Below are positions 1-32,226 of a DNA stretch of 64,000 bases, in pieces. The notes beneath the pieces were generated by a model that saw nothing but the letters and a program-made list of their open reading frames with translations, did no database searches and was not told where the DNA came from. The stretch is taken from the IMG/VR virus record IMGVR_UViG_3300042318_000959, positions 5,802 through 69,801 of that record; one strand, given 5' to 3'. Origin of the DNA: a virus. Its lineage: Duplodnaviria > Caudoviricetes. Position 1 is the stretch's first letter. Every line of letters starts with the position of its first letter. A program made the position numbers and the translations under genes.

Positions 1-2669
1 GTCTGCCCCATAACCATTTCTATGATTTGCTGAGCTTGTTCTTGTGGAATACCTGCTTCTACTAGTTGTTGTAATACTTGTTGAGGGTCTGCACCTTGTT
101 GTAACATAGTTGCAACTTCTTGTGTTATAGCTTGCATTTGATCACCACCTGCTTGTTGTGGTACTTCTCCTTGCTCTCCCATTTCAGATTGCATACCACC
201 TTCTTGGTAGTATGATTGCATAAAATTAGGAGCAAAATTAGTAGCTTTACCCCAAATATCTTCCATTTGCTGTTTGTTTAGTTTTTTATTGACTTTTGTA
301 TCAATAAAATCCATATCATCTTCTGGATAAGGTTGTTTATTTCTGTCAATATCATCTTGAAAAGCTGATTCCTCATATGCTTTTTTATAAATACCTTCTT
401 TGTACCACGTAGGGGATTTTTTATTAACTTTTACATCAATAAAATCCATATCTTCTGGGTAAGGTTGTTTATTTCTGTCAATATCATCTTTAAAATCTGA
501 CTCCTCGTATGCTTTTTTATATTTTCCTTCTTTGTACCACGTAGGGGATTTTTGTCCCCCTTCTTGGAAGAATCCTCCATTGCCAAAACCAAAACTTAGT
601 TGCCCAGTTTGTGCAGTTCCTTGTCCTAATCTTGGGGCTCCTTGTCCTAGTCTTAATACACCTTGTCCTAATTGTGCATTTTGGGCTCCAGCTGATAATT
701 CCGGTGTAAAATAATTTCTTAGTGGAGCTGCTCTACGGGCTGGACCAACTGCTGAACCTACTTTGTTCACTACTTGTAGGCCTTTACTTGTGGTCTGTGC
801 CAATCCTGGAACTTTTCCGGGCAAAGGTAAATATCTTACGTATTTAAGCTTGCCTAATGCTGGTGCTGCATCTAGTGCTTCTATAGCTGCCTTTTTATAT
901 TCTCCCTCTCCTGCATAATCTGCTGCATTACCTAAAGCATTTGCCCAATATAGTGGATTAGCTACACCTAAAACTTGATCATACGCATTCTTACTGTTTT
1001 TTGAAAATCCCTCTGCTGGTAGCTCTCCATATTTGGCGTAGTTACCAAGTGTTTGTACTGGATTAGCTAATCTTTCCCCAACTCTGCTTATCATAGTGCC
1101 GTCATCCGCAACTCCTATGTTTCCTTGGTTTCCGGAATACTTAGGCTTTCCTTTCATAGCATTCTGGAAGTCTTGGTATGTAAAATCTTTTGCTGTTTTA
1201 GCTGGTGTAACTTTTTTATCTGCTTTTCTAGGTGTAGACTTAGCCGGTGTTCCTGCTACTGGTTTAGATCTTAGATTTTCTTTTTTAAATCTTGGGTCAT
1301 TTAGCTCTGATAATAGTTTTGTATTGTCCTGGGCTGTTCCACTTGTATAGCCTAGTCTCTTAGCTTCTGCCCATGGCATACCTGTTTTTTGTTCCCAAGC
1401 ATCTCTAGCTGATGTAGATTTTTGGCTTGTTTGGTCTTTATTGTACATATCCATAAATGAAGCTGCTTGTTCGTCTGTCATTTCATTTGGATCACTATAT
1501 TCAGTTATTTGTTCTGAGTCATCGTATTCTCTATTCTGTGGTCCAAATACTGGATTTACTTCCATTATTGGCTCTACTTCTTCTTGCCCAGTTTTGTTTT
1601 TTAATTTACGTCTTTGCTCAGCAAATTGCGGATTTTTTAATGCCATATTTAGTGGTAATTCATCTCTATATGTACCTGCATCTTGAAAATATCCACCGTA
1701 TGCCAGGCTCTGCTCTCTTCCTTCCCCTGTCATAGTTTTGCGTTGGTCTTCTGCATAACCTTTCATAATCTGATTTTGCCTTTTTTGAGCACCCATTCCT
1801 TGTAAGAATGATTTTGTACCTTTTAGTGCTCCAAGAGCTGCTCCAGCTATACCCATTCCAGTATTACCTTTTGCAAACTGTTGCCCACTAAATCCAAGAG
1901 CATCTTCCATTCCCACATCTCCATAAGGATTGGCAAACTGAGTTATGCCAAACCCACCTGCATTTTCTCTTGCTGCTGCTCCTCCATCAGTTGTTAGTGG
2001 CTTTAGTTTTTCATCAGCCAAAGACATATTCATGTACTCCTTATTATAGTCAATTGGTTGTTTCAATTTTTCATCAGCTGTAGACATGCCCATATACATT
2101 TTATTGTAATCAGGTTTGGCAGTAGCTAAAGAGTTACTTTGTGGTTGTTGTGTTGGCGACTGTCCAAAATTAGTTTGCATACCTGCTGGGTTATTCTGAT
2201 ACCAGTTAGGTGTAGTTTGTCCAAAATTAGTTTGCATACCTGCTGGATTATTTTTGTACCATCCGGCATCTTGCATCATAGGAAGTTGTGTTCCCCCCAT
2301 CTCATGCTTCTGGTTCCACATAGAATAAGCTATTGCTATAGCTTGTTTTTGTGGTCGGCCTTCTCTCATTAAAATACCTATTTTTTCACTAATCCAATCG
2401 CTTTTTTGACCTCCGTCTTTATATGCTGGGACTTCTGCTACATAACTAGCTCCCCCAAATTTATATTCGTTGCCCGGCTCCATATATGTAGGATTGTCCA
2501 TAGCCATACCATTTTGGTCTAGGGGTTGTCCGTATACTGGGTAAGGAGTGTTCCTCATTGTTATATTCTCACTAGGTATGTAATTAATAGGGTTATTTTC
2601 AGAAGCGTATCCTGGAGTATAGCCTGTATTATTTACTAAATTCGATTTTTTCTTATACTTTCTCATCAT
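1..2669 (-). CDS. Large virion cargo/ejection-type protein, partial (runs off the left edge; >889 aa; absent from the ORF track)
   Basis: ATG at 2669 (MMRKYKKKSNLVNNTGYTPG...). The frame reads open to base 1 (...QQIIEMVMGQ). It contains modules ending in YKDGG, HEMGG, MQDAG, LAYGG, FQEGG and YQEGG, a KQAIAIAYS motif, a WAEAKRLGYTSGTAQDNTKLL motif and a Gln/Met-rich tail. It lies downstream of the muzzle gene, where crAss-like phages place cargo proteins. Confidence 0.8.
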   Translation of the reverse strand, partial: MMRKYKKKSNLVNNTGYTPGYASENNPINYIPSENITMRNTPYPVYGQPLDQNGMAMDNPTYMEPGNEYKFGGASYVAEVPAYKDGGQKSDWISEKIGILMREGRPQKQAIAIAYSMWNQKHEMGGTQLPMMQDAGWYKNNPAGMQTNFGQTTPNWYQNNPAGMQTNFGQSPTQQPQSNSLATAKPDYNKMYMGMSTADEKLKQPIDYNKEYMNMSLADEKLKPLTTDGGAAARENAGGFGITQFANPYGDVGMEDALGFSGQQFAKGNTGMGIAGAALGALKGTKSFLQGMGAQKRQNQIMKGYAEDQRKTMTGEGREQSLAYGGYFQDAGTYRDELPLNMALKNPQFAEQRRKLKNKTGQEEVEPIMEVNPVFGPQNREYDDSEQITEYSDPNEMTDEQAASFMDMYNKDQTSQKSTSARDAWEQKTGMPWAEAKRLGYTSGTAQDNTKLLSELNDPRFKKENLRSKPVAGTPAKSTPRKADKKVTPAKTAKDFTYQDFQNAMKGKPKYSGNQGNIGVADDGTMISRVGERLANPVQTLGNYAKYGELPAEGFSKNSKNAYDQVLGVANPLYWANALGNAADYAGEGEYKKAAIEALDAAPALGKLKYVRYLPLPGKVPGLAQTTSKGLQVVNKVGSAVGPARRAAPLRNYFTPELSAGAQNAQLGQGVLRLGQGAPRLGQGTAQTGQLSFGFGNGGFFQEGGQKSPTWYKEGKYKKAYEESDFKDDIDRNKQPYPEDMDFIDVKVNKKSPTWYKEGIYKKAYEESAFQDDIDRNKQPYPEDDMDFIDTKVNKKLNKQQMEDIWGKATNFAPNFMQSYYQEGGMQSEMGEQGEVPQQAGGDQMQAITQEVATMLQQGADPQQVLQQLVEAGIPQEQAQQIIEMVMGQ
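285..552. repeat. Tandem duplication of about 130 bp within the cargo CDS
   Basis: Two copies encode KSPTWYKEG.YKKAYEES.F.DDIDRNKQPYPED(D)MDFID.KVNK (44/45 aa). Confidence 0.9.
2160..2262. repeat. 57-bp tandem duplication within the cargo CDS
   Basis: Two copies of TGTCCAAAATTAGTTTGCATACCTGCTGG.TTATT encode WY.NNPAGMQTNFGQ. Confidence 0.9.
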
Positions 2670-2680
2670 TTTTTATAATA

Positions 2681-5293
2681 TTATTTTCTACTAAATAGTT
2701 TTTTTGCTAAGAAATTTGCATCTCTTTTTATTTTTGAATCTATTACCATAGTGGTATCTCCTTTTTTAAACCTGTCTGTCATATAATTTATGTCCGGCTT
2801 TCTACAGTTTACACAACCATAGCTTGCATATCTATTTTTTGCATCTTGTGCATATAGTGGATTCCTTTTCTCAAAATCATACGTAACATGTTGTGCAATG
2901 TCTTTAGCTCTGGCGGCTGGTTCCCCAAATGCTGCTACTGGCTGTAATCTAAACCCTGGTTGCCCGTATATATCACCCTTTGGGTTCATTGTATAAGTTC
3001 CTCTAGGTGTGGCTTTTGATTCTGGGTGTGTTTCTAGATAAGCAACCCCCCTATCATTTATGTTTACATCTGGATTTGCACCTGTAAGTACAGGAAATGA
3101 TTTTATAACTTTTCCATTTTCAAGTATGTAATTTGTATTTGTTCTTTTGTCTGTTACCACACCATTTTGTAATTTCATTTCATTACCTTGTGGTGAAAAG
3201 TCTCCTCTCATAACTTTTTCAAATAGGCTGATAACTTGATCTGCTTCTTTTATTTCTTTTTTTGCCTTTGCTACAGGGGCTTTTATTGTTTTTCTAGTTA
3301 CTGGTGGCTGTGTATTTTGCATACTGTTTTGCTCTTCTTGTGAGAATCCATTAAATTGCTTCATATCGCTTCGTTGTGAAGTTTTATTATTGTTATTTGC
3401 TATTGTAAAATTTTTATCTTTTAGTCGATTTAATAACTCTATGTTGGAACTAGCTGTCCCATCTGAATAGCCTAGTTTTTTAGCTTCTGCCCAAGATTTT
3501 CCTGTTCTCTTTACCCACCAATCTCTTGCTGAGTCATTGTCAAATTCTGAAAGTTCCCCACCATCTTCATATTTTTTCATTTCGTTATCTTTGCCACATT
3601 TATGACAGTTGTACATATCCTCTTTGCTAGAATCAGACTTGTTCCATGACCATCCACAGTTACTACATTTTACTTTTCCCTCTATTTCTCCTCCATCTTT
3701 ATAATATTGTCCTAATATATTCATAGACTCTTCATCTATTTTTCCTGAAAATGGGTGACTTTTTACTTTTTTTACATACTCATTTACTGTTGGGTTGTTT
3801 TTTATGACATTTTCTCTAAGGTCTACAACCCTTTTCCCATATAGTGGGTTCTTTCTCATATTTATGCCCTTTTTAGTTAGAGGCACTCCATATATTTTTT
3901 GCATGTTAAACCCATGATAGCCGCTTTCTGTTGTTGGGTATACATTACCTAACCCATTGTAAGCTTGTATTCTAGTAAGATCATCTTTTATGCCGAGTTT
4001 ATCTGCATATTTCATTTTATCTTTTATGGTTAGTACAAAGTACTCTTCTTCAGATTTTGCCCCAAGATCCTTTTCCGCCTGTGGCCCGGTAACGTGACCT
4101 ATGTTATCGTCAGTTTTACCTAATCCTGTCTCCTGTAATCCTATAGATACTGCAGTATATGGGTCAACTCCGTGTCTGTATGCTGCCTCAACTATTCTTC
4201 TTATTGTTGCGTCATCATAATAACCACTTTTTAGATCTGCGTTTGGGTTTATTGCTTTGCCTGTTGTGGCACTTATTTTTCTAAGGTCTTCAAATTTAAC
4301 TACCTTTCTTCCTCCAAGTTGGAATTGTGATGTGGTGTCTTCCCTATCTTCTAGGTTTGACATTTCCATAAATTTTTTATAATCAAATACAACATCTTGG
4401 TTTTCAAAGTCTTTAACCATTTGTTTAGCTATATTTGCTCTATTTTGTGGATCTTTTACTTGAGATAAAATATCTGCAATGCCATTAACCATTTCACGAT
4501 CATCATTTGTTTGACCACCATCTCTATACTGTTGCTCTTGTTGTTGCATCTGTTGAGGTGCTACATACTCTGGCAAAGCTATCTGAGGCATTTGATAATA
4601 CGCTTGATCTATTCCTGTATCTTGTTGTTGCTGTTGGTACTGTTCTTCTTGTTGCTGCCTTCTTTCAGAATCTTGCTCTTGTTGGTATTGCACTTCTGTC
4701 AAGAAATCCTTTTCTTTTTGTTTTTGTAGTAGCTCTGCTTTTGCTTTCTCTGCTTCTAAGTCTTCTTTACTGGCTATGTCTGGTGCTGTTTGATAGTCAC
4801 CGGTATTTATAGGTAAATTAAATGATGTATCTACTCCATAACCATAGTCATAGCCTTCAGTTGCAGAGGGTTTTATACTCATTTTCTTAGCTAACCAATT
4901 CTTTACAAAGCCTACAGTTTTTCCTTTTACAAAAGGGTTGTGAGCTATCTCTAATCTTGACATTACACTAGAGATAGGAGCATTATCTGCTGTCTGGTAT
5001 AAGTTTGCGTATCCTGCTGAACCTAAGAAATGTGCCCCGTATAAATCTGCATCTGTTGGATTTATCCCTAGTCTCTTTTTAAGATAGTTTGCATTATTTG
5101 TGGTTAATCTTAAAGCTGCCTCTTCTTGTAGTTGTGGATTATATATGTCTTTAAGATTATAGCCCATATTTTTCCAGGTGCTTGGTAAAAATTGATACCT
5201 GCCTGATGCCCCATGTGGGTTATGTGCTGAGTCATCACCTGAGCTTTCTGAGGCTCTAATTTTTGAAAGGTAGCTACTATAAGGATTTGACAT
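2681..5293 (-). CDS. Virion-associated multi-domain peptidoglycan enzyme (lysozyme-like + SLT transglycosylase + Zn ribbon + YkuD/L,D-transpeptidase-like)
   Basis: N-terminal ESSG...GRYQFLPSTW (lysozyme-like). Central AYRHGVDPYTAVSIGLQETGLG...AYNG (SLT). CSNC...CHKC ribbon. C-terminal FPVLTG...TPRGTY...H...SYGCVN (YkuD-like). Confidence 0.8.
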   Translation of the reverse strand: MSNPYSSYLSKIRASESSGDDSAHNPHGASGRYQFLPSTWKNMGYNLKDIYNPQLQEEAALRLTTNNANYLKKRLGINPTDADLYGAHFLGSAGYANLYQTADNAPISSVMSRLEIAHNPFVKGKTVGFVKNWLAKKMSIKPSATEGYDYGYGVDTSFNLPINTGDYQTAPDIASKEDLEAEKAKAELLQKQKEKDFLTEVQYQQEQDSERRQQQEEQYQQQQQDTGIDQAYYQMPQIALPEYVAPQQMQQQEQQYRDGGQTNDDREMVNGIADILSQVKDPQNRANIAKQMVKDFENQDVVFDYKKFMEMSNLEDREDTTSQFQLGGRKVVKFEDLRKISATTGKAINPNADLKSGYYDDATIRRIVEAAYRHGVDPYTAVSIGLQETGLGKTDDNIGHVTGPQAEKDLGAKSEEEYFVLTIKDKMKYADKLGIKDDLTRIQAYNGLGNVYPTTESGYHGFNMQKIYGVPLTKKGINMRKNPLYGKRVVDLRENVIKNNPTVNEYVKKVKSHPFSGKIDEESMNILGQYYKDGGEIEGKVKCSNCGWSWNKSDSSKEDMYNCHKCGKDNEMKKYEDGGELSEFDNDSARDWWVKRTGKSWAEAKKLGYSDGTASSNIELLNRLKDKNFTIANNNNKTSQRSDMKQFNGFSQEEQNSMQNTQPPVTRKTIKAPVAKAKKEIKEADQVISLFEKVMRGDFSPQGNEMKLQNGVVTDKRTNTNYILENGKVIKSFPVLTGANPDVNINDRGVAYLETHPESKATPRGTYTMNPKGDIYGQPGFRLQPVAAFGEPAARAKDIAQHVTYDFEKRNPLYAQDAKNRYASYGCVNCRKPDINYMTDRFKKGDTTMVIDSKIKRDANFLAKKLFSRK

Positions 5294-5365: not shown

Positions 5366-6295
5366 TTAAATTTCTGACTCATTGAGAATAAACTTTAAAG
5401 CTATGCTATATCTACTATCTTTATCATATGTCAGCTTGTTTAAAAACCAGTCTCCCCCCATTCTTTCAAGTAAGGCTTTGCCTTTAAAACTCACGGCAGT
5501 GGAGTTAACAAATTTGTCTATTTGATTCTTATCTTGTAATAAAAAAGGTAGATTATTAGTGCTGCTTTTTACTCTATTGTAGAAGTAGTCATAATTCCAT
5601 TTAAAACCATCCGGGTTTGTAATCATAATATCTTGGGTATTATTTGTATTTGTTTTTGGATAATTTTTTGAATTCGCTATTTTTGTTTTTTCAGGTATTA
5701 GGTTTAAGTTACCAGAGCATACAATGTTATTGTATATCATAGACTTATTAAATGTTAACCCTATACTTGTTGAGTAATCATAATCATTGTGGTATCTTTT
5801 TGCTTCGGTCCAAATTTGAACATTATTCAAAGTCTTAGTCACAAACTCCTCCTTTACTGGGTACTCTACTATAAATGGTTGTTTTTTACCGTAGAATACT
5901 TGGTAGGATTTATTTGTAAGTAAATGTGACCATAGTCCAAACTCTGAGTAATCAGCTGTTGTATTTACTCCAGATTGGAAATAGTTATTGTGGTTTATGT
6001 AGTAGTTAGGTTTAAACCCGTAAAAACTCATCCAAGAACCCATTATTGGAGAGAAAGCTACTGTCCAAGAAACATCCTCAAAATCAGTTGGATTTATCTG
6101 TACTGGTACTACTATATTAGTGACTGTTGGGTCTACTGTATCTAAGCAATCACAATGTGCATTGCCACCAGGATCTAGTACTAGGGTACATCCTGGTGGA
6201 CATTTTACATTATTTTCTACTGTTATTTTTGTACAGATTACCGTGCCATTTACTGTTGACATTACATATTCTTCTGTTGGGCAACTACAATTCAT
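5366..6295 (-). CDS. Tail stabilization (muzzle) protein, separated C-terminal part
   Basis: SWTVAFSPIMGSWMSFYGFKPNYY resembles the C-terminal region of crAss-like/P22 gp10-like muzzle proteins. It starts 11 nt after the 2193-aa gene. Confidence 0.6.
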   Translation of the reverse strand: MNCSCPTEEYVMSTVNGTVICTKITVENNVKCPPGCTLVLDPGGNAHCDCLDTVDPTVTNIVVPVQINPTDFEDVSWTVAFSPIMGSWMSFYGFKPNYYINHNNYFQSGVNTTADYSEFGLWSHLLTNKSYQVFYGKKQPFIVEYPVKEEFVTKTLNNVQIWTEAKRYHNDYDYSTSIGLTFNKSMIYNNIVCSGNLNLIPEKTKIANSKNYPKTNTNNTQDIMITNPDGFKWNYDYFYNRVKSSTNNLPFLLQDKNQIDKFVNSTAVSFKGKALLERMGGDWFLNKLTYDKDSRYSIALKFILNESEI

Positions 6296-29642: not shown

Positions 29643-30599
29643 TTAAGGTGCACAGATATAAGTACCATTAATATACATTTTACTATTGGTAGTAAATGTA
29701 ACTGGAGTTCCTTGAATTAATAAACTTTCAATTAAAGGTTTAGGGGTTGCTGTAGTTTCTTTTAGCCAATGTAAGTCTAACACTAAAGAGTTAGGTAAGT
29801 GGTCAGCAACCATTTGTATGTGACCATTTAATTCATCAGGGGGTAATGTTGTATTAACCCAAGACCATGCAGAAAAATGATTTGCTGCTGTAGGTATAGG
29901 TAAAAATGGAAGTTCTGTTTTAAACTGCCCTGTACCAAAATTGGTAACAGTTGACAAATCTATAACAATATTGAATGAAACCATTTGCCCAAATCTTACA
30001 TAATAAGAATTGTATGTGGGATAAGTAGCGTCAGTTCCTGTAAAAACTAATCCTGTAGCTTGAAATATAGGAGACCATCTAACTGCTACTTCTGCTCTTG
30101 AATATATTAAAACCCAAACAGCGGCTCCTTCTGTATTAGCAGTACATAAATAAATATCTCCATTATCTAATATCCATCTACTGTCAGGTACAAATCCTCT
30201 AGTAGAATCATCATTAGCTCCTGGGGTAAGTGTAAAGTTATACTTTACTTCACGAATAGTGAATCCATCTTGTTGTAGAACATACTGTCTTCCTGCTTCC
30301 CATTTTAATTCGTAATCTATAGAACATACCTGAGCAATACCACCATTACCTCCATTGTAACTGTTAGTGGTTCCTTTTTGTAATCTTGAACCATTATCAA
30401 AAGTTACTTTAGCAGTATCAAGTAATTCAATATTATTTGTAGTTGTATTACCTTCAGTTGTAACTTCTTGTAAGTCTTGTGAACCTGCTCCTCCTGTTTC
30501 AATATCATCTACTATTTTTGTTAATGCTTCGACTTCCTCTGGGAGTCTCCACCAGTTAACTTTTGGCTCTAGTGGGAATTTATTTTTTTGACTTTTCAT
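29643..30599 (-). CDS. Putative tail fibre/spike-like protein
   Basis: 318 aa with DLQEVTTEGNTT and IYLCTANTEGAAVW motifs of the type seen in fibre proteins. Confidence 0.55.
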   Translation of the reverse strand: MKSQKNKFPLEPKVNWWRLPEEVEALTKIVDDIETGGAGSQDLQEVTTEGNTTTNNIELLDTAKVTFDNGSRLQKGTTNSYNGGNGGIAQVCSIDYELKWEAGRQYVLQQDGFTIREVKYNFTLTPGANDDSTRGFVPDSRWILDNGDIYLCTANTEGAAVWVLIYSRAEVAVRWSPIFQATGLVFTGTDATYPTYNSYYVRFGQMVSFNIVIDLSTVTNFGTGQFKTELPFLPIPTAANHFSAWSWVNTTLPPDELNGHIQMVADHLPNSLVLDLHWLKETTATPKPLIESLLIQGTPVTFTTNSKMYINGTYICAP

Positions 30600-30602
30600 T
30601 TT

Positions 30603-31079
30603 TTAAAATATTTTATATTGAACTATTATACCCCAACTAGCTTTTTCTTCGCTTCTAATATTATAGTTTAAGCCGGTTGCCCATTTACTGTGTTCTATTA
30701 ACAAATTGCCATATGCTGTGATGCTTGATGTAGATAGTTCATTCGACCTCACTCCTGCATAGCCATGGAATTCTATTTTCTTAGGCTTTTTTAATATTTC
30801 ATTTTGTACTTGTATGTAGTCTTTTTGGCCAGATATTATATCATTGTTTATTGATACTTGATTCTCAAGATTTGTGACTACTTTCTGTAAGTTAACTATT
30901 CTATTGTCTTTCTCTTTTACTAGCTCTTTGCAAGAATCATATTTTACTAAATCTATTGCTGTAAGTCTTGCCTCTCTTTCTGATAATACTACAATGCTAT
31001 CTTTCTTCTGAGTATCTATCTGTGAAAAACTTTTGAAGCCCACTAATAGGAAGACTATCAATAACTTTAATTTGTACAT
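30603..31079 (-). CDS. Putative outer-membrane spanin component without a lipobox; C-terminal beta-strand anchor
   Basis: Signal peptide ending FKSFS|Q, a coiled coil, and four amphipathic strands ending GIIVQYKIF. It overlaps the i-spanin-like gene by 83 nt. Confidence 0.55.
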   Translation of the reverse strand: MYKLKLLIVFLLVGFKSFSQIDTQKKDSIVVLSEREARLTAIDLVKYDSCKELVKEKDNRIVNLQKVVTNLENQVSINNDIISGQKDYIQVQNEILKKPKKIEFHGYAGVRSNELSTSSITAYGNLLIEHSKWATGLNYNIRSEEKASWGIIVQYKIF

Positions 31080-31329
31080 ATTCTTTTTCTTTTATTTTTT
31101 TTATTCTATCTACTATAATAGTATCTATTTTTTTAAGCTCTGACTCTTCTTTTTTATATGTGGCTGCCTTTTTTTCTAGGCTTTCTATTTTAGTTTTTAA
31201 AGTCTCTGACTCTTTTACTAATTGATCTCTATTATTTTGATATAGTACTATTGAAAGTAGCCATATAATTATTAATGCTGATCCAAGCCATTGTTCTTTA
31301 AAAAAACTTAATACTTTAATAGTGTTCAT
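30997..31329 (-). CDS. Putative inner-membrane spanin (Rz-like)
   Basis: One N-terminal TM segment (WLGSALIIIWLLSIVLY) plus a coiled coil, directly after the endolysin. Confidence 0.65.
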   Translation of the reverse strand: MNTIKVLSFFKEQWLGSALIIIWLLSIVLYQNNRDQLVKESETLKTKIESLEKKAATYKKEESELKKIDTIIVDRIKKIKEKEYVQIKVIDSLPISGLQKFFTDRYSEER

Positions 31330-31797: not shown

Positions 31798-32226
31798 TTA
31801 CTTTAATTCGTCTATTCCGTCTTTTAATTCCTTAGATCTTCTTAGTAAGGCTTTAAGTTTTTGAAAAATATCAACTTTAAAAGCCGCTTCAAAGTTCTCT
31901 TTCATACTAGTTAGTTCAATAAATATTATCACTATTGCTATCACCTTTGTAAAAAAGAATGGTATACTAAACCATATCTTAAAGAACTCCCCTAATAAAA
32001 ATTTATCAATTGTGTATAGTAATAGTATTGCTGATTGGTATAGTACAAATTTTGATACTATGTTACTAAGTTTTCTTGATGTAACTTTATCTTTTAATAT
32101 TACTGCCTTTGCTATCCCAAGTATTGTGTCTAAAGCAATGGCAACGCCAACTGCTACTAGTATTCCAACCACTGGTGCAAAAAACATTAATAATGATGTC
32201 CCTATATAAAATGCATAAGTTTTCAT
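31798..32226 (-). CDS. Holin (phage holin 4/TcdE-like)
   Basis: Several TM segments, a DTILG..KA......SRK motif and a basic C-terminus; precedes the endolysin. Confidence 0.8.
   Translation of the reverse strand: MKTYAFYIGTSLLMFFAPVVGILVAVGVAIALDTILGIAKAVILKDKVTSRKLSNIVSKFVLYQSAILLLYTIDKFLLGEFFKIWFSIPFFFTKVIAIVIIFIELTSMKENFEAAFKVDIFQKLKALLRRSKELKDGIDELK

Follow-up and report, generated by a model that had tools for sequence, protein, structure and literature searches.

Bacteroides phage B124-14 and Croceibacter phages are listed as spanin-less (Kongari et al. 2018, PMC6139136), which poses the question of how phages of Bacteroidota breach the outer membrane. The same question is raised by a 64,000-nucleotide stretch of DNA from a tailed phage (Duplodnaviria; Caudoviricetes), which we refer to as the window and which covers positions 5,802 to 69,801 of the IMG/VR record IMGVR_UViG_3300042318_000959. 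There, an overlapping pair of genes directly follows the holin and endolysin genes and encodes a protein of 110 amino acids, hereafter the inner protein, and one of 158 amino acids, the outer protein. A credible lipoprotein gene for a canonical outer-membrane spanin component (o-spanin) was not found in the window, which offers only antisense or implausible open reading frames (ORFs) for this role. Based on the analyses below we see an even chance that the two proteins constitute a two-component, spanin-like, periplasm-spanning complex with a β-barrel as outer anchor. The chance falls just short of even for the more specific proposal that the outer protein represents the first class of o-spanins that are not lipoproteins, carrying a barrel similar to the YadA anchor and inserted by the β-barrel assembly machinery (BAM), and that it is, together with its helix-anchored and fused variants, the missing system of many 'spanin-less' Bacteroidota phages. 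As published spanin detection pipelines require a lipobox (PMC6139136, PMC12596118), they would miss such a pair.

The initial annotation of this DNA had listed a holin, an M15 endolysin, the 110-amino-acid protein and the overlapping 158-amino-acid gene in this order and had read the last two as a spanin-like pair. The gene order was confirmed at the coordinates given in Table 1. For the pairing we compared IMG/VR loci retrieved by the outer protein (39) or by the inner protein (80), about 115 in all. In each of the 39 an inner-protein homologue is located immediately upstream, and in the set of 80 the four-strand partner is present wherever the locus is not cut by the end of a contig, with a short lipoprotein taking its place in none of them; the overlap amounts to ~77-92 nucleotides in both sets. 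Genes that are adjacent, overlapping or embedded within a lysis cassette are a hallmark of spanins, and this arrangement was found in the window and in all complete related loci. The neighbouring endolysins are of at least three types: an M15_4 gene lies upstream of the pair in the window, in L002-L006 and in L037 and downstream of it in L011-L013, L016, L023 and L038, an M15_3 gene lies upstream in L026, L029 and L030, and a DUF5675 gene lies upstream in L008. The two genes are an obligate, overlapping module beside varied endolysins, which supports the spanin-like pairing, and since the pair stays together while the adjoining endolysin is exchanged, a lysis accessory role is indicated. The DUF5675 protein (PF18925, E = 8e-35; L008:2371-2766), which has equivalents in L020 and L025, occupies the place of the M15 endolysin upstream of the pair in one subgroup and may belong to an unrecognised endolysin family.

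The inner protein contains a hydrophobic segment at residues ~14-30, followed by a heptad-rich helix indicative of a coiled coil. The two features expected of an inner-membrane spanin component (i-spanin), an N-terminal transmembrane (TM) anchor and a periplasmic coiled coil, are both predicted from its sequence, bearing out its earlier description as i-spanin-like with one N-terminal TM segment and a coiled coil. The protein is conserved across the 80 loci, most strikingly in its C-terminal block, which ends with LQKFFTDRY and in which D91, L98, F102 and Y106 are invariant in the family alignment. Besides its match to PHROG 739 (Table 1) it also hits PHROG 7584, 'Rz-like spanin', with an E value of 0.019. 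In many homologues a small residue and a Gln are positioned just past the hydrophobic segment, pointing to possible cleavage at this site, but the length of 17-19 hydrophobic residues argues for an anchor rather than a cleaved signal.

The outer gene is a real, conserved and unannotated family. A word-index search yielded 47 relatives with 42-100% identity, and an exhaustive HMMER search gave 57 clusters at 50% identity, nearly all of 130-160 amino acids, none of the homologues searched being longer than 277 amino acids. In comparison with close relatives the ratio of nonsynonymous to synonymous substitution rates (dN/dS) is 0.04-0.08, in the coil and in the β domain alike, and it is equally low whether the relative has a Cys at position 15 or not. 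Y155 and F158 are nearly invariant in the family. The 57 clusters, the low dN/dS and these two residues together exclude a chance ORF. The full N-terminus is kept in frame down to 42% identity. Gene callers, in spite of that conserved start, begin the gene at a GTG codon (Val13), giving a protein of 146 amino acids that has lost its signal peptide (database proteins P0002-P0016); this call presumably avoids the overlap with the inner gene and is the same type of error as reported for o-spanins. Pfam, PHROGs and a profile search of the PDB sequences were all without a match to the family, the last of these returning coiled-coil noise only, and the ESM Atlas gave unnamed viral clusters and a weak, unconfirmed lead to DUF6808. 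The family was likewise unmatched in bacterial contigs representing one genome per species, which thus provided neither prophage copies nor a direct host assignment.

We analysed the signal peptide together with the overlapping reading frame. The N-terminus of the outer protein comprises a basic n-region, a hydrophobic core of 10 residues and K-S-F-S in front of a Gln. Residue 15, which follows L-V-G and is the site where a lipobox Cys would be expected, is Phe, and the sole Cys is residue 50, exactly as noted in the initial annotation, which had described a Sec signal ending FKSFS↓Q, no lipobox Cys and a single Cys at about residue 50. The site S-F-S↓Q, in which positions -3 and -1 are small and +1 is Gln, conforms to the 'Q-rule' of signal peptidase I (SPI) that is specific to Bacteroidota (PMC5837995). 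As the outer frame is +1 relative to the inner frame, the second codon position of the outer gene coincides with the wobble position of the inner gene, and 29 distinct overlaps were available for analysis. Residue 15 (codon at 31035-31037 in the window) is Phe in 22, Cys in three, Tyr in two and Ser in two of them, i.e. all four bases are used, and the inner codon underneath encodes Leu (CTN) in each of the 29; Cys15 arises only where this Leu codon is CTG. Residue 15 therefore varies with the third base of a Leu codon whose meaning never changes, and a Cys is neither favoured nor disfavoured here. Gln20 (codon at 31020-31022 in the window) is CAA or CAG in all 29 overlaps despite its middle base being located on the four-fold-degenerate wobble position of Thr, Ser or Ala codons, and Ser19 is TCA in all 29, the Phe codon beneath it being TTC without exception in a genome rich in AT. 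Gln at +1 is present in 39 of 39 representatives. The fixation of S19 and Q20 on free wobble bases demonstrates selection on the SPI site (small residue at -1, Gln at +1) in the outer frame, and these codon patterns make an outer protein that is a Sec/SPI substrate, and not a lipoprotein, a well-supported conclusion. In L025 (region 2121-3423; likewise in L076) a SegE-like GIY-YIG homing endonuclease gene (L025:2438-2962, PF19835, E = 2e-6) is inserted between the genes of the pair, leaving a remnant of the old start of the outer gene at 2329-2466. The outer gene of this locus has a new, different signal peptide that agrees with the wobble test as it is Cys-free and again ends before a Gln.

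The full-length AlphaFold2 model of the outer protein, based on a 39-sequence alignment, has a predicted local distance difference test score (pLDDT) of 84 and consists of a helix (residues 34-97) and strands at residues 103-112, 120-130, 133-142 and 148-155. The coiled coil of ~60 residues, the four strands and the terminal Y-x-x-F that had been recognised by eye in the letters reappear in this model, the coil as a helix of 64 residues and the C-terminus as YKIF. Within the heptads of residues 61-96 Ile occupies position 'a' and Leu, Tyr, Lys or Gln position 'd', with three I-I-x-x-Q-x-x repeats, and this combination of Ile in the 'a' layer and Gln in the 'd' layer is compatible with a trimer without proving one. 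In a full-length search with VIA the results were dominated by the long helix, and residues 80-158 were thus folded alone, resulting in the same four strands with a pLDDT of 88.6. Searching the PDB with Foldseek gave the TM domain of AtaA as first match, with Hia, YadA and a barrel fragment of EspP also listed (E = 0.03-0.3); the full-length model yielded the same ranking order. In VIA, which is independent of Foldseek and was run against 48,161 chains, the top rank again went to AtaA (Z 5.3, root-mean-square deviation (rmsd) 2.3 Å across 55 residues); Hia came fourth (Z 4.7), and other outer-membrane barrel fragments ranked lower. Among the predicted viral structures of BFVD there were eight matches with E ≤ 1e-3, three of them without an informative name and five named as YadA-like anchors or adhesins ('YadA-like C-terminal membrane anchor', 'agglutinating/autoagglutinating adhesin'; E = 4e-4 to 9e-4) from Yersinia, Proteus, Salmonella, Escherichia and Erwinia phages. 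The models thus support a protomer that resembles the anchor of trimeric autotransporter adhesins (TAAs), with a helix, four strands and a C-terminal aromatic residue, the statistics of the PDB matches being weak. A passenger is missing, as only ~80 residues precede the strands and no head domain is present. Yersinia phages TG1 and phiR1-RT, Phieco32 and Proteus phage P59 are among the BFVD matches, and small YadA-like anchor proteins are encoded by many phages of Proteobacteria.

Mapping the 39 divergent sequences onto the strands revealed a strict alternation. The 20 positions of one face have a mean Kyte-Doolittle value of +2.4 and do not contain a single charged residue, whereas the opposite face, comprising 19 positions, is polar with 27% charged residues and shows the stronger conservation (entropy 1.82 vs 2.22), its conserved residues including Glu/Lys103, His105, Tyr107, Gly109, Tyr123, Glu129, Gly136, Glu154 and Lys156. 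As the polar face is more conserved than the hydrophobic one, we favour a lipid-exposed barrel over a soluble sheet. The turn at residues 131-132 consists of two basic residues and is free of insertions and deletions, length variation being confined to the loops 113-121 and 143-148, and this pattern, read as short periplasmic turns and variable outer loops, fits the rules for outer-membrane proteins, as does the C-terminal Phe. Four strands cannot close a barrel, implying an oligomer, and analogy suggests three protomers per barrel. Three runs of a homotrimer prediction with residues 21-158 gave scores of 0.49, 0.23 and 0.01, with the median below the mark, which weighs neither way on the question of a trimer.

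The C-terminal domain is not the only one found on this protein. Flavobacterium phage vB_FspM_immuto_2-6A, cultured on Flavobacterium sp. LMO8, carries a homologous pair, gp187/gp186, with an overlap of 89 nucleotides downstream of an endolysin and a holin (L041:2387-3050, corresponding to NC_055915 45825-46488). gp187 is homologous to the inner protein, with which it has the terminal F-F-T-D-R-Y motif in common, and gp186 corresponds to the outer protein in its S-F-S↓Q site, N-terminal domain and coil; the C-terminus of gp186 is a basic stretch and a single hydrophobic helix of GxxxG type that replaces the four strands. P0096, P0100, P0102 and P0103 are helix-anchored in the same way, suggesting that the outer protein carries at its C-terminus a membrane anchor that can be exchanged. 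In the annotation of gp186 the start is placed 14 codons too far downstream, and the signal peptide is lost as a result. A further variant, P0065 (238 amino acids, two Logan contigs), joins inner residues 4-107 in frame with outer residues 26-158 without a signal peptide, its inner part comprising the TM segment, the coil and a terminal Y-F-A-D-R-Y; a scan of viral contigs for P0065 gave only a distant locus. It is either a natural single-chain form or the artefact of a one-base indel in an A-rich run and, if genuine, would argue for a periplasmic coil and for the C-terminus of the inner and the N-terminus of the outer protein being neighbours. A programmed frameshift that would fuse the two proteins of the window was rejected, because a slippery site is lacking where the inner gene stops.

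Taken together, these findings can be combined into the following model. The inner protein would be anchored in the cytoplasmic membrane, with its coiled coil and conserved C-terminal block extending into the periplasm. The outer protein would be exported by Sec, cut by SPI before Gln20 according to the Q-rule and never be lipidated. Its last ~57 residues would then insert into the outer membrane, presumably by BAM, as an oligomeric barrel of the YadA/Hia/AtaA type, most simply made from three protomers with four strands each, so that the Ile-rich coiled coil would hang ~10 nm into the periplasm. Outer residues 20-53 may bind inner residues ~85-107. With the peptidoglycan cleared by holin and endolysin, the complex could then disrupt, destabilise or fuse the outer membrane in the manner suggested for Rz/Rz1.

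Several observations weigh against this model. The match of the inner protein to known i-spanin families is weak (E = 1.4e-4), the four-strand outer protein is absent from 50,697 deposited phage genomes searched at DNA and protein level, leaving it without a cultured phage carrier, and the terminal motif is Y-x-x-F instead of the classical Y-x-F β-signal. The YadA-type anchor architecture put forward in the initial annotation holds in so far as TAA anchors came first in three structure searches, but it has no counterpart in sequence, PF03895 (YadA_anchor) being unmatched at E ≤ 1 in the window protein and in 39 + 10 relatives; moreover, all Foldseek matches to solved structures fall short of E = 1e-3, and with a Z of 5.3 the best VIA match barely exceeds unrelated rows at 5.1-5.2. 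The initial annotation had also overlooked three points. In genuine TAAs the helix fills the pore of the barrel and leads out of the cell, so that this topology would export the coiled coil, the opposite of what a spanin needs; the fold similarity is compatible with either orientation of the coil. The helix-anchored relatives, including the one in a cultured Flavobacterium phage, carry a helix that would normally stay in the inner membrane, which a simple outer-anchor model does not explain. Finally, its statement that the lipobox is absent is correct for the window protein but not for all relatives, given that a lipobox-like Cys is found in about 10 of 63 partner genes and in three of the 29 distinct overlaps.

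This last observation bears on one alternative, that the outer protein is an ordinary lipoprotein o-spanin. L-V-G/S/A/T-C does occur at residues 12-15 in L003, a close relative with 89% identity, and in roughly a sixth to a fifth of the family members, which is explained as wobble drift: Cys15 tracks the CTG Leu codon of the inner gene, Phe, Ser, Tyr and Cys all occur at this position, dN/dS is insensitive to the Cys, and the replacement signal peptide of L025 does without one. We regard a lipoprotein o-spanin as highly improbable, and for the protein of the window itself it is refuted by Phe15 and the lack of any Cys before residue 50. A different possibility is that the pair is linked to lysis and periplasmic, with the four strands forming a soluble oligomerisation core similar to Skp or prefoldin, or binding an outer-membrane component or peptidoglycan. 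The alternating hydrophobic/polar pattern would suit the buried core of a soluble β oligomer equally well, and both the statistically weak matches to solved TAA anchors and the non-classical terminal motif agree with it. A polar face that is better conserved than the hydrophobic one would, however, be unusual for a solvent-exposed surface, whereas strand lengths of 10-11 residues, aromatic side chains at the ends of strands, the short basic turn and the terminal Phe suit outer-membrane proteins; relatives that swap the domain for a hydrophobic membrane helix point to an anchoring role, and neither Skp nor prefoldin was among the fold matches. We thus consider a soluble core unlikely.

The structural neighbours of the outer protein, TAA anchors and phage-encoded YadA-like adhesins, also allow for a miniature TAA whose coil and N-terminal domain are exported to the surface, where they might mask receptors, exclude superinfection or cause clumping, with the inner protein acting as regulator or chaperone. 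Gly109, Gly136 and Gly150 are conserved on the lumen-facing side, and lumen-facing Gly residues are seen in TAA barrels with helices inside. YadA-like anchors encoded by phages have been described and read as adhesin or virulence cargo (PMC10654107). This explanation has to accommodate, however, the invariable overlap with the gene of an inner-membrane protein that is predicted to have its conserved end in the periplasm, a fusion (P0065) that ties the coil to an inner-membrane anchor, the location of the gene in lysis cassettes and the lack of a head or passenger domain; in addition, AlphaFold2 does not place the helix on the sheet as in TAA protomers (rmsd ~20 Å with helix). It appears slightly less probable than the soluble core. 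The pair could also have another late or lysis-linked role in the envelope, such as antiholin-like timing or joint action with a third protein, with the helix-anchored form being ancestral and restricted to the inner membrane. Both partners of the helix-anchored relatives indeed appear to be inner-membrane proteins, and the weak similarity to known i-spanins is in line with such a role, but similarity to known antiholins or regulators was not found, a type II TM protein with a coil and an overlapping exported partner is the pattern of spanins, and Bacteroidota phages are otherwise without recognisable spanins (PMC6139136). We judge such a role to be about as improbable as the soluble core.

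Table 1. Genes of the lysis cassette and segments of the outer protein, in coordinates of the window.
Feature	Coordinates	Strand	Evidence
Holin, 142 amino acids, several TM segments	31798..32226	(-)	PF05105 Phage_holin_4_1, E 4.1e-9; PHROG 199
Endolysin, peptidase M15_4, 154 amino acids	31332..31796	(-)	PF13539, E 7.3e-11; PHROG 17001, E 6e-60
Inner component, 110 amino acids, N-terminal TM segment and coiled coil (predicted)	30997..31329	(-)	PHROG 739 'Rz-like spanin', E 1.4e-4 (weak)
Outer component, 158 amino acids	30603..31079	(-)	57 representative clusters; no Pfam or PHROG family
Overlap of inner and outer gene, 83 nucleotides	30997..31079	(-)	ORF coordinates; codon analysis of 29 distinct overlaps
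Type I signal peptide, residues 1-19, cut before Gln20 (predicted)	31023..31079	(-)	S19/Q20 kept in 29/29 overlaps
Mature N-terminal domain, residues 20-53	30921..31022	(-)	Column entropy 1.51 vs 2.22 for the coil; most conserved part
Long helix, residues 34-97 (predicted)	30789..30980	(-)	AlphaFold2 block pLDDT 77-97; canonical heptads from residue 61
Four-strand C-terminal domain, residues 102-158, ending YKIF (predicted)	30606..30776	(-)	AlphaFold2 domain model pLDDT 88.6

The IMG/VR record from which the window was taken is incomplete (CheckV 46%). A structural protein of 564 amino acids encoded by the phage is 40% identical to those of Cellulophaga phages phi17:2 and phi4:1, the nearest cultured relatives as judged by this protein, and shows 28% identity with that of the human-gut phage csAssE-Sib, suggesting that the phage is crAss-like. 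As the structural protein resembles those of Cellulophaga phages and the phage looks crAss-like, the host is probably a member of the Flavobacteriia. The outer gene is followed, after a gap of three nucleotides, by a gene for 318 amino acids (29643-30599, (-) strand) that is without a Pfam family and common to only some of the related loci (L003, L011); it probably encodes a virion or fibre protein and lies outside the lysis cassette.

With a barrel-anchored outer subunit, the pair would be a testable candidate for the way in which a large group of environmental crAss-like phages open the outer membrane. Literature searches gave no description of a barrel-anchored or non-lipoprotein spanin, and the finding would come as a surprise to lysis specialists. 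If true, the definition of spanins would widen, phage lysis would be linked to the BAM of the host, annotation pipelines would need to be changed, and the YadA-like anchor fold would gain a function outside adhesion.

Overlapped two-component spanins such as Rz/Rz1 of phage lambda (PMC6139136) likewise consist of a type II inner-membrane protein with a coiled coil and an overlapping exported partner in a holin-endolysin cassette. The periplasmic lengths of the pair, totalling ~160 residues, are also similar to those of Rz and Rz1, and in both cases the distal ends are conserved. Unlike Rz1, the outer partner is not a lipoprotein, has 138 mature residues instead of 40, is mostly helical and ends in four strands. 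The proposed contact, too, differs from Rz/Rz1 in that it would connect the C-terminus of the inner to the N-terminus of the outer protein rather than two C-termini, and conserved periplasmic Cys pairs are absent. P0065 would be the single-chain equivalent bridging both membranes, comparable to the unimolecular spanin gp11 of phage T1; gp11, however, has an N-terminal lipid anchor in the outer membrane and a C-terminal helix in the inner membrane, so that P0065 would have reversed polarity and a β anchor. The disruptin gp28 of phage phiKT represents another outer-membrane route for 'spanin-less' phages (bioRxiv 10.1101/515445), but is a small cationic amphipathic peptide that lacks a membrane-spanning complex, a partner gene and a β domain.

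With the type Vc (TAA) anchors of YadA, Hia and AtaA the outer protein shares the coiled-coil helix, four long antiparallel strands and the C-terminal aromatic residue, and it differs from them in having no match to PF03895 and no passenger or head, in a helix proposed to be periplasmic and in being tied to an inner-membrane partner and lysis genes. Proteins of the TolC family are trimers in which four strands per protomer form a 12-stranded barrel and long periplasmic helices meet a partner anchored in the inner membrane. This geometry is the one proposed here, and CusC is found low in the VIA list (Z 4.1). In TolC the strands are interleaved with helical hairpins in a protomer of ~430 amino acids, and the function is efflux. 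The outer protein has no sequence or clear fold relationship to this family, and its proposed function is lysis and not efflux. As the lipobox is missing, the outer protein is by definition not an o-spanin, and by sequence it does not belong to YadA_anchor. In function it appears to resemble an o-spanin, in architecture a YadA anchor.

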